From NCBI RefSeq assembly GCF_049337375.1, contig NZ_JBMPIV010000015.1: a DNA stretch of 64,000 bases, one strand, 5' to 3'. Under the pieces are notes generated by a model, which saw only the letters and a program-made list of their open reading frames with translations, did no database searches and was not told the DNA's origin. Shown in pieces: positions 35,248 to 35,820 of this stretch (positions are counted from its first letter, which is position 1; each line of letters begins with the position of its first letter). The position numbers and the translations under genes are program-made. Origin of the DNA: Nannocystis pusilla (GTDB lineage: Bacteria; Myxococcota_A; Polyangia; Nannocystales; Nannocystaceae).

Positions 35248-35820
35248 TCAGCGGCCCTGGTCGTTGGGCTCCCACGAGTCGGCGCCGGCGTAGGTGCTGG
35301 CGTCAGACGAGTCGTCGGAGGTCGTCCAGTCGGACGTGCTCCACTCCTCGTCGGGGCCGGCGTAGGTGCTGGCGTCGGACGAGTCGTTGGTGCTGTTGGT
35401 CGTCGTGGTCGTCGTGGTGCCCGGCGTGGTGTTCGTCGTGGTCGACGTATCGCCGGTCGTGGTGGTGGTGTCGCCCCACGTGTCCCACTCCTCGTCGGGG
35501 CCGGCATAGGTGGCGCCGTCGCTGGAGGTGGTGATCGTCGGGTCGACGGTGTCACCGCCGGGGTTGGTCGATTCGGAGACCATCGAGGTGTCGACCGTAT
35601 CGGCGGTGTCGACGGTGTCGCCGGCGGTGGCCGACGTCTCGTCGCCGATGTCGCGGTCGACCTGGCAGGCGGCGCCCATCACTCCCAGACTGGCGGTGAA
35701 GGCGACGGCGGCCCACGTCGCGCCGAGCGAGTGACGCTGAACGTGACCGCAGAACGGGCAGGTCGCGTCGGAGGCTCGGAACAGACAGGCGCATTCGGGG
35801 CAATCGATAAGCGAAGACAT
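35248..35820 (-). CDS. Zinc-ribbon membrane protein with acidic Ser/Thr-rich extracytoplasmic repeats
   Basis: N-terminal CPEC-x12-CPFC zinc ribbon. Transmembrane helix ATWAAVAFTASLGVMGAAC. Three copies of DSSDASTYAGPDEEW(D/S)T embedded in a T/S/D-rich region. Minus-strand GC3 is high. Confidence 0.6.
   Translation of the reverse strand: MSSLIDCPECACLFRASDATCPFCGHVQRHSLGATWAAVAFTASLGVMGAACQVDRDIGDETSATAGDTVDTADTVDTSMVSESTNPGGDTVDPTITTSSDGATYAGPDEEWDTWGDTTTTTGDTSTTTNTTPGTTTTTTTNSTNDSSDASTYAGPDEEWSTSDWTTSDDSSDASTYAGADSWEPNDQGR

Follow-up and report, generated by a model that had tools for sequence, protein, structure and literature searches.

A zinc-ribbon protein with a lipobox and repeated tyrosine motifs, encoded between radical-SAM and GGCX-like genes of Nannocystis pusilla, as a candidate substrate for post-translational modification

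Gene content of the locus

The DNA analyzed here (the window) is a stretch of 64,000 nucleotides from contig NZ_JBMPIV010000015.1 of Nannocystis pusilla (assembly GCF_049337375.1), with a GC content of 73% and numbered from its first letter. Our subject is the gene at 35248-35820, whose product joins a zinc ribbon (ZR), a predicted lipobox-type export signal and repeated tyrosine motifs, together with its two neighbors, a radical S-adenosylmethionine (radical-SAM) enzyme gene and an HTTM gene. We propose, with a probability of roughly 0.6, that this open reading frame (ORF) encodes the precursor, or substrate, of a conserved post-translational modification cassette. The features are as follows, with the evidence for each in brackets.

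33636-34955, plus strand: radical-SAM/SPASM peptide-maturase homolog, 439 aa, proposed modifier of the motif tyrosines (domain and family scores, synteny)
35248-35820, minus strand: gene of the ZR, lipobox and tyrosine-motif repeat protein, proposed precursor or substrate (ORF, GC content at third codon positions (GC3), homologs)
35749-35802, minus strand: four-cysteine zinc ribbon, N-terminal and predicted cytoplasmic, residues 7-24 (invariant cysteines, AlphaFold2)
35665-35721, minus strand: hydrophobic region (h-region), residues 34-51, ending in the lipobox-type TASLGVMGAAC with Cys52 (PROSITE, invariance, AlphaFold2)
35485-35520, minus strand: tyrosine motif copy 1, residues 101-112, DGATYAGPDEEW (repeat analysis, family logo)
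35341-35376, minus strand: tyrosine motif copy 2, residues 149-160, DASTYAGPDEEW (repeat analysis, family logo)
35269-35304, minus strand: tyrosine motif copy 3, degenerate, residues 173-184, DASTYAGADSWE (repeat analysis)
35821-35909, no strand: divergent intergenic region of 89 bp common to the ZR and HTTM genes (ORF coordinates)
35910-38354, plus strand: HTTM/GGCX-like polytopic membrane protein, 814 aa, clade-specific partner and possible second, periplasmic modifier (fold, profile, synteny)

The ORF at 35248-35820 begins with ATG and encodes 190 aa. Its GC3 in its own frame is 0.906, similar to the 0.90-0.97 of the neighboring genes, and this resemblance, together with the existence of conserved homologs, identifies it as a real gene. 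Other long ORFs, such as a 637-aa one at 33642-35555 (-) that runs across the radical-SAM and ZR genes, lie over the real genes in a different frame or on the complementary strand; they are by-products of the 73% GC and not genes. ORF coordinates confirm the position between radical-SAM and HTTM-like genes that an earlier reading of this DNA, made from the sequence only, had given to the gene. It is encoded on the strand opposite to both, with transcription running toward the radical-SAM gene (convergent) and away from the HTTM gene (divergent), and the head-to-head ZR/HTTM arrangement is also found in the related loci L001, L002 and L004. The 89-bp region between these two genes contains no sigma-70-type consensus, and a scan for promoters and terminators found nothing promoter-like and a single terminator-like site, as many as chance would give.

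Domains and predicted export signal of the ZR protein

The zinc-ribbon cysteines are C7, C10, C21 and C24, with a fifth cysteine at position 12. Both CxxC knuckles (C7-x2-C10 and C21-x2-C24) lie on predicted beta hairpins, as expected of a zinc ribbon; the sequence-only reading was right about the ribbon, although the spacer it gave as CPEC-x12-CPFC is of 10 residues and not 12. In the AlphaFold2 model residues 1-30 have a predicted local distance difference test score (pLDDT) of 80-88 and form beta hairpins (strands at 4-6 and 13-15), a helix follows at residues 33-49 and the rest of the protein is disordered. Basic residues stand between the ribbon and the hydrophobic stretch at about 34-51. 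The part predicted to be exported (138 aa) holds 55 Ser+Thr, 30 Asp+Glu and just two Lys+Arg, in agreement with the S/T/D-rich extracytoplasmic part described earlier. Pfam and NCBIfam scans of the 190-aa protein found no family, zinc-ribbon models included, and five related precursors likewise had no significant NCBIfam match.

At Cys52 the protein matches the core pattern of PROSITE PS51257 ([LVI][ASTVI][GAS]C after an uncharged h-region), and the same core is matched in 22/30 close relatives and 109/119 representatives of the wider family. Judged from these sequence features, the protein is probably processed as a lipoprotein. The MYXO-CTERM sorting region (TIGR03901), made up of a Cys-containing C-terminal signature, a hydrophobic helix and an Arg-rich tail, is absent from the window protein. 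MYXO-CTERM-like tails do occur in four homologs (P0023, P0024, P0029 and P0030), with 17.4-19.9 bits against a cut-off of 20, and their presence in this subgroup speaks for a tail outside the cytoplasm.

The repeated tyrosine motif

The tetrapeptide TYAG is found three times in the tail, with its T at residues 104, 152 and 176 (SSDGATYAGPDEEWDT, DSSDASTYAGPDEEWST and DSSDASTYAGADSWEPN). Copies 1 and 2 have TYAGPDEEW in common, and copies 2 and 3 have DSSDASTYAG. The third copy reads GADSWE instead of GPDEEW, and we therefore count two full copies and a diverged one; the motif had been called triplicated, which holds for TYAG and fails for the longer unit. When the tail was shuffled with its composition preserved, at least one TYAG appeared in 0.5% of the shuffles and a repeated 9-mer in 0.004%, so that the repetition is not a product of chance. 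The copies are repeats at the DNA level as well (66-93% identity).

The window protein's copies read D-[GA]-S-T-Y-A-G-[PA], close to the logo of 74 copies from 31 proteins, D-[GA]-[SV]-T-Y-A-G-P-D-E. Each of these 31 proteins carries one to three copies, which is the variation in repeat number that the sequence-only reading had proposed to look for. Tyrosine is nearly confined to the motif (74/89 tyrosines of the exported parts). Glycine stands at +2 after the tyrosine in all 74 copies, the residue between being Ala in 70 (Y-A-G) and Gly in four (Y-G-G), while Trp is present in just 15/74.

The homolog family

The 190-aa protein has 31 homologs, the best matches coming from N. pusilla and N. 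punicea. A genome scan gave 21 loci from Nannocystis, Paraliomyxa, Nannocystaceae metagenome-assembled genomes (MAGs) and less precisely labelled myxobacterial or proteobacterial MAGs. All 21 are of Nannocystaceae type, and close homologs are confined to this family. In an alignment of 28 members C7, C10, L13, C21-P-F-C-G25, C52 and Y-A-G-P are invariant and conservation of the T, D and E that surround the motif is 90% or more; elsewhere the proteins are of low complexity and variable length. The profile of the close family matched 665 cluster representatives (E <= 1e-3) among 1.84 billion proteins, and 99 of 142 new representatives carry all three hallmarks; a few matches are unrelated zinc-ribbon repeat proteins.

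Some members (L019, L022 and P0018) have an appended C-terminal Cys-rich domain (...CPDGYTCQ...WSQCG), and in a separate clade (L039, L042, L043, L052 and L056) a large Cys-rich domain comes after F-Y-G-G-C-P-P-D. P0001, the N. pusilla protein deposited in GenBank, contains an internal out-of-frame stretch, rich in Pro and Arg where a Thr tract is expected, which indicates paired indels in the ACC/ACG repeat. A copy at the end of an N. exedens contig (L011, 6001-6570) is a frameshifted duplicate of L010. Both anomalies are probably assembly errors in a repeat-prone tract.

Synteny of the ZR gene

Loci of N. punicea, N. exedens, N. bainbridge, N. radixulma, Paraliomyxa and many MAGs share the order HTTM(-)/ZR(+)/radical-SAM(-). 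Related loci were read by in-frame translation and pattern scans, the naive listing of ORFs with a GC3 filter having returned mostly spurious overlapping ORFs at 73% GC. Across the loci with all three genes the enzyme is 67-99% identical, and the ZR protein only 30-37% identical outside Nannocystis. The arrangement is also found rearranged. In four loci (L018, L023, L026 and L035) the ZR and enzyme genes share a strand and the ZR gene is immediately upstream, with a gap of 14 nt in L018 and an overlap of a few nucleotides in L023, L026 and L035; L023 carries a tandem pair of ZR genes. The ZR and radical-SAM genes of L004 are just 16 nt apart, a spacing that rules out a hidden small precursor gene between them. 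An exception to the trio is L022, a short contig.

The outer flanking genes (a major-vault-protein homolog, AAA-TPR and GFA) are common to loci of the genus Nannocystis only. The first of them, at 30929-33466 (+), encodes an 845-aa bacterial major vault protein homolog (MVP_shoulder 6e-30, Vault_3 1e-9, Band_7) directly upstream of the radical-SAM gene, an adjacency kept only within that genus. Downstream of the HTTM gene, 38936-40645 (+) encodes a KGGVGR-motif AAA ATPase fused to TPR repeats. The second ZR paralog of MAG BC1.173 lies just upstream of a 41%-identical homolog of this AAA-TPR protein (L005/L025, 8695-10557), which hints at a further link. A Nannocystis MAG has a second ZR paralog with a MYXO-CTERM-like tail directly downstream of the HTTM gene on the same strand (L004, 4609-5286 (-); L013, 2609-3454 (-)), and there the HTTM gene is thus flanked by two candidate substrates.

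The radical-SAM enzyme and its partners

The enzyme contains a Radical_SAM domain (6.9e-25) and a SPASM region. Its highest family scores are with TIGR04103, nif11-class peptide maturase 3 (429.7 bits, E 9e-129; curated cut-off 725), and TIGR03913, GDL-motif peptide maturase (418.7 bits; curated cut-off 592), the next-best family reaching 155 bits. Enzymes of the other ZR-linked clades score 396-521 bits on these two models and at most 155 on any other. By these sequence scores the enzyme is a member of the TIGR04103/TIGR03913 peptide-maturase superfamily and not an equivalog. We take IPR026482 to correspond to TIGR04103. PlpX, the founding splicease, was placed in IPR026482, a SPASM subclass described as uncharacterised and as occurring together with Nif11 precursors (PMC11002830), and the superfamily is accordingly taken to contain it.

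Paralogous enzyme clades at about 65% identity have partners of the same build. On the flanks of the N. pusilla paralog P0089 are genes of a PMT_2 membrane glycosyltransferase and of a 161-aa protein with two copies of 'GGSYYAGP[PA]TD'. The partner of Plesiocystis P0102 is 168 aa long; its lipobox (LLSAC) is canonical, and 'ADYGG[PA]PP' occurs in it twice. A metagenome scan with the enzyme alignment gave 80 loci at 49-84% identity, 44 of which had at least 700 nt on both flanks and entered the count. A same-build ORF, that is, a CxxC...C[PA]FC zinc ribbon with h-region, lipobox and a low-complexity tail bearing tyrosine motifs, was found within 2.5 kb of the enzyme in 37/44, mostly within 130 nt. 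The tyrosine contexts of these ORFs include [PVI][VIF]-Y-G-A-P, [LMVA]-Y-G-G-P-P, F-Y-G-G-C-P-P-D and P-Y-G-A-P-P, and X-Y-G examples in the sister clades are VYGAPA, LYGGPP, FYGGCPPD and DYGGP. Three gene orders occur among the ZR/radical-SAM loci. The reverse search and the profile matches establish a widespread two-gene ZR/radical-SAM module, of which the gene in the window is the Nannocystaceae branch.

In the SYYAGPxT clade (L028, 3970-7873; L040, 2086-6317) a PMT_2 (GT-C) glycosyltransferase replaces HTTM, and the accessory membrane enzyme differs according to the residues after the tyrosine motif. The zinc ribbon of the L107 precursor (6245-6703 (-)) weakly matches positions 428-458 of the 477 in TIGR03913 (E 0.036). 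Enzymes of that family may themselves have a zinc ribbon fused at the C-terminus, an arrangement reminiscent of engineered fusions of leader and enzyme (PMC11414181).

The HTTM/GGCX-like neighbor

The Pfam HTTM match of the 814-aa protein is weak (25.7 bits, cut-off 27.7). It has 67 homologs, the named ones all from Nannocystis, Nannocystaceae or Myxococcales. An AlphaFold2 model from a 37-sequence alignment has a pLDDT of 88.9 and a predicted template modelling score of 0.91. When compared with the PDB by Foldseek, its 11 best matches, with E from 1e-7 to 1e-4, were all cryogenic electron microscopy structures of human GGCX. The alignments run over about 700 columns at a template modelling score of only 0.3-0.4 and 12-13% identity; every match to another protein had E > 0.1. 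The family profile also matches the GGCX sequence (E 8e-5) in four colinear segments, and a PDB search with the single sequence found nothing, only the family profile and the fold search being successful. K259 ('NGWVKAGTSW'), invariant in 37 sequences, aligns with Lys218 of GGCX ('AGVKKLDADW'), the numbering of which was checked on the full-length chain. Lys218 is the base that deprotonates vitamin K hydroquinone, and PDB 9l6r is a K217A/K218A mutant. As judged from the model and the profile, the HTTM gene product is a genuine GGCX-fold homolog with the predicted catalytic-lysine position kept.

The HTTM gene is adjacent only in the Y-A-G-P-D-E clade, every HTTM-linked locus having G-P-D-E, and the clades other than this one and SYYAGPxT have neither HTTM nor PMT_2. 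A gamma-carboxylase-like character of this neighbor is supported by fold and lysine, with synteny only where the motif continues with Asp-Glu. In L113, and probably L111, the region matching the C-terminal part of the window's HTTM protein is a separate upstream gene. We know of hardly any substrates of bacterial GGCX/HTTM homologs. HTTM genes are present in linaridin clusters (PMC9927463).

Proposed pathway and the evidence against it

The functional steps proposed here are all inferred from sequence, structure prediction and gene context. The zinc ribbon would remain in the cytoplasm as a leader or docking element, while the cytoplasmic radical-SAM enzyme would modify the motif tyrosines on the unfolded chain before export, most likely by splicing. 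The chain would then be exported by Sec and probably lipidated and cleaved at Cys52, a step that would remove zinc ribbon and signal peptide together and leave a lipid-anchored acidic envelope protein as the mature product. In the Nannocystaceae clade the divergently transcribed GGCX-like enzyme may carboxylate the Asp/Glu after the motif on the periplasmic side.

These parts differ in strength. The ZR protein is likely to be a substrate of the neighboring radical-SAM enzyme, as had been suggested from the sequence; the support comes from a synteny that is conserved and also rearranged over dozens of loci and that appears whether the search starts from the protein or from the enzyme. Tyramine splicing as the reaction on the motif is put forward tentatively, at odds somewhat below even. 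An action of the HTTM enzyme on the ZR protein stands only a little short of an even chance.

Several observations count against the pathway. As regards export, 8/30 relatives fail the lipobox pattern, some having Asp or Asn at -3 or -4, and the lipobox cysteine is at 52 (family median 50-52), beyond the usual first 35 residues or so, a position near 50 that follows from the zinc ribbon preceding the h-region. As regards synteny, the ZR gene of this genome is on the strand opposite to both enzyme genes, the second ZR paralog of BC1.173 (L005/L025) is found without the enzymes nearby (the other copy, L024, forms the full trio), L014 combines HTTM with a different radical-SAM gene, and in L020 a radical-SAM gene is lacking in the vicinity and the sole HTTM match is a distant one. 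Homologs standing without the enzymes had been named as a finding that would speak against a substrate, and when looked for they amounted to only a few second paralogs and short contigs. For the HTTM partner, no HTTM gene adjoins L018, L023 and L026 (TYAGPDE) or L035 (TYAGPDV), and a strict link of HTTM with the acidic extension is weakened by these G-P-D-E and G-P-D-V loci; HTTM paralogs of at most 37% identity (L111-L113) have unrelated neighbors and neither ZR nor radical-SAM genes. For the reaction, the enzyme is under both curated equivalog cut-offs and the window protein has T-Y-A-G, whereas characterised spliceases use X-Y-G, Gly following Tyr directly in just 4/74 copies. The X-Y-G sites of the sister clades fit splicease chemistry; the T-Y-A-G of the window clade does not do so strictly. 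A Nif11/NHLP leader is missing from the ZR protein, and beside the enzyme no additional small, conserved ORF was noticed as a candidate for a Y protein.

Alternative explanations

The ZR protein could be the radical-SAM substrate and undergo another radical reaction directed at tyrosine, for example crosslinking (C-C or C-O), beta-hydroxylation, epimerisation or dehydrogenation. The Y-A-G (rather than X-Y-G) of 70/74 copies suits this explanation, as do the position of the enzyme below the TIGR04103/TIGR03913 cut-offs in clades of its own and the fact that its nearest solved relatives, SkfB and PqqE, make crosslinks. However, the sister clades, with 50-65% identical enzymes, carry the canonical V/L/I/M/F-Y-G, and only splicease-type models give large family scores. 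A reaction other than splicing appears unlikely, though by no means negligible. A particular crosslink, the three-residue cyclophane raised in the sequence-only reading, fails: the conserved motif is Y-[AG]-G-P and not aromatic-X-X-acidic, Trp is not conserved, the invariant +2 Gly offers no C-beta for such a ring, and the enzyme groups with the TIGR04103/TIGR03913 families.

It is improbable that the product is an ordinary mucin-like lipoprotein or bitopic protein left unmodified, with the zinc ribbon tethering or regulating the enzymes at the membrane or with a meaningless synteny. The low complexity and poor conservation of the tail (30-37% identity), the opposite strand of the ZR gene and the few ZR paralogs that stand alone would all be expected of such a protein. 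Against them are the adjacency itself, which spans 49-100% enzyme identity, three gene orders and overlapping start and stop codons, and the tyrosine motif, which is the one conserved feature of the tail and holds nearly all of its tyrosines; moreover, no other conserved candidate substrate is found beside the enzyme, the 16-nt spacing of L004 included.

A membrane anti-sigma-like or zinc-ribbon signalling protein, as also proposed from the sequence on account of a cytoplasmic Cys4 element at the N-terminus and a single transmembrane helix after it, is very improbable, since there is no match to zf-HC2 or any other family, the H-x3-C-x2-C motif of zinc-associated anti-sigma factors is absent, no sigma-factor gene (of the extracytoplasmic function type or other) is adjacent in the window or conserved among the loci, and the low-complexity exterior is disordered with a short repeat as its sole conserved element.

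Comparison with known systems

The closest known systems to the proposed cassette are the spliceotide ones, in which a splicease (PlpX/PcpX/RhaX) acts with a precursor (Morinaka 2018 and Scott 2022, as summarised in PMC11414181, PMC9811515 and PMC11002830). PlpX-type spliceases excise tyramine at X-Y-G, and their published substrates are described as extending from peptides to proteins (PMC11414181, PMC9811515, PMC11002830). Binary systems work without a Y protein, a leader helix acting as activator, and 27 splicease systems have been characterised and 939 predicted (PMC11414181, PMC9811515, PMC10533398, PMC11626197). Like them, the window system has a ribosomal precursor with several copies of a short tyrosine motif beside a radical-SAM/SPASM enzyme, which is of the same superfamily; it further resembles them in the X-Y-G of its sister clades and in being two-component with no separate Y protein, as in the published binary types. 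It differs in its site (T-Y-A-G-P-D-E), in a leader that is a zinc ribbon before a lipoprotein-type signal peptide and not Nif11, NHLP or helical, in a product predicted to be an exported, lipid-anchored protein, in its GGCX-like partner and in an enzyme below the TIGR04103 cut-off. From triceptide precursors it is set apart by the glycine, without C-beta, as third residue of the motif and by an enzyme whose strong scores are confined to TIGR04103/TIGR03913.

With the vitamin K-dependent carboxylase GGCX the HTTM protein shares the fold and the Lys218 equivalent, and the candidate substrate is predicted to expose Asp-Glu on the non-cytoplasmic side; for Asp there is the precedent of MloH, which carboxylates Asp in malonomycin biosynthesis (cited in bioRxiv 10.64898/2026.08.19.745780). 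The substrate in the window differs by having neither a propeptide-type recognition element nor a Glu cluster like that of a gamma-carboxyglutamate (Gla) domain.

The order of modification and export proposed above has a parallel. Anaerobic sulfatase-maturing enzymes are cytoplasmic radical-SAM/SPASM enzymes that modify a short motif of an unfolded protein exported later, and the same pre-export logic is proposed for the window system; they differ from it in enzyme clade, in target (Cys/Ser to formylglycine) and in substrate architecture. Like bacterial lipoproteins (Lgt/LspA), the ZR family has the lipobox core pattern with an invariant cysteine. It differs from them in the folded zinc ribbon of 30 residues before the h-region and in a cysteine at 52 instead of 15-35. 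The tail of some ZR family members is similar to that of MYXO-CTERM surface proteins, which is missing from the window protein.

Novelty and biological meaning

The kind of enzyme is already known, and the apparent novelties are the precursor architecture, the Y-A-G site, the anchored product and the GGCX-like partner. In the accessible literature we found neither the zinc-ribbon-plus-lipobox precursor architecture (which may have been described before) nor a Y-A-G site, an envelope-anchored product of the predicted kind or a GGCX-like partner, and nothing relevant on TIGR03913, on TIGR04103 or on HTTM together with radical SAM. A bolder proposal, which we consider doubtful, is that these genes define a new class of ribosomal products: lipoprotein precursors with a cytoplasmic zinc-ribbon leader before the signal peptide, in which signal peptidase II would serve for leader removal and the tail would carry ketoamide or other tyrosine-derived sites made by the radical-SAM enzyme and, in Nannocystaceae, Asp/Glu carboxylated by the GGCX homolog. 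If that were true, the ZR protein would be the first ribosomally made protein on which a bacterial vitamin-K-type carboxylase acts.

If the proposed pathway holds, bacterial GGCX/HTTM homologs would gain a ribosomal substrate that is concrete and open to test, the zinc ribbon that precedes a lipoprotein signal peptide would be a new kind of leader, and splicease-type enzymes would appear to accept Y-A-G besides Y-G. The short motif could also serve as a tag in protein engineering. Splicing-type radical-SAM chemistry would then not be confined to small secreted peptides, as proteins anchored in the envelope would be decorated too, and hundreds of lineages would be involved (665 representatives match the profile, some of them unrelated zinc-ribbon proteins). 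Ketoamides are warheads of protease inhibitors, so that a surface array of them in myxobacteria that prey or live in soil would lend itself to a straightforward ecological interpretation.

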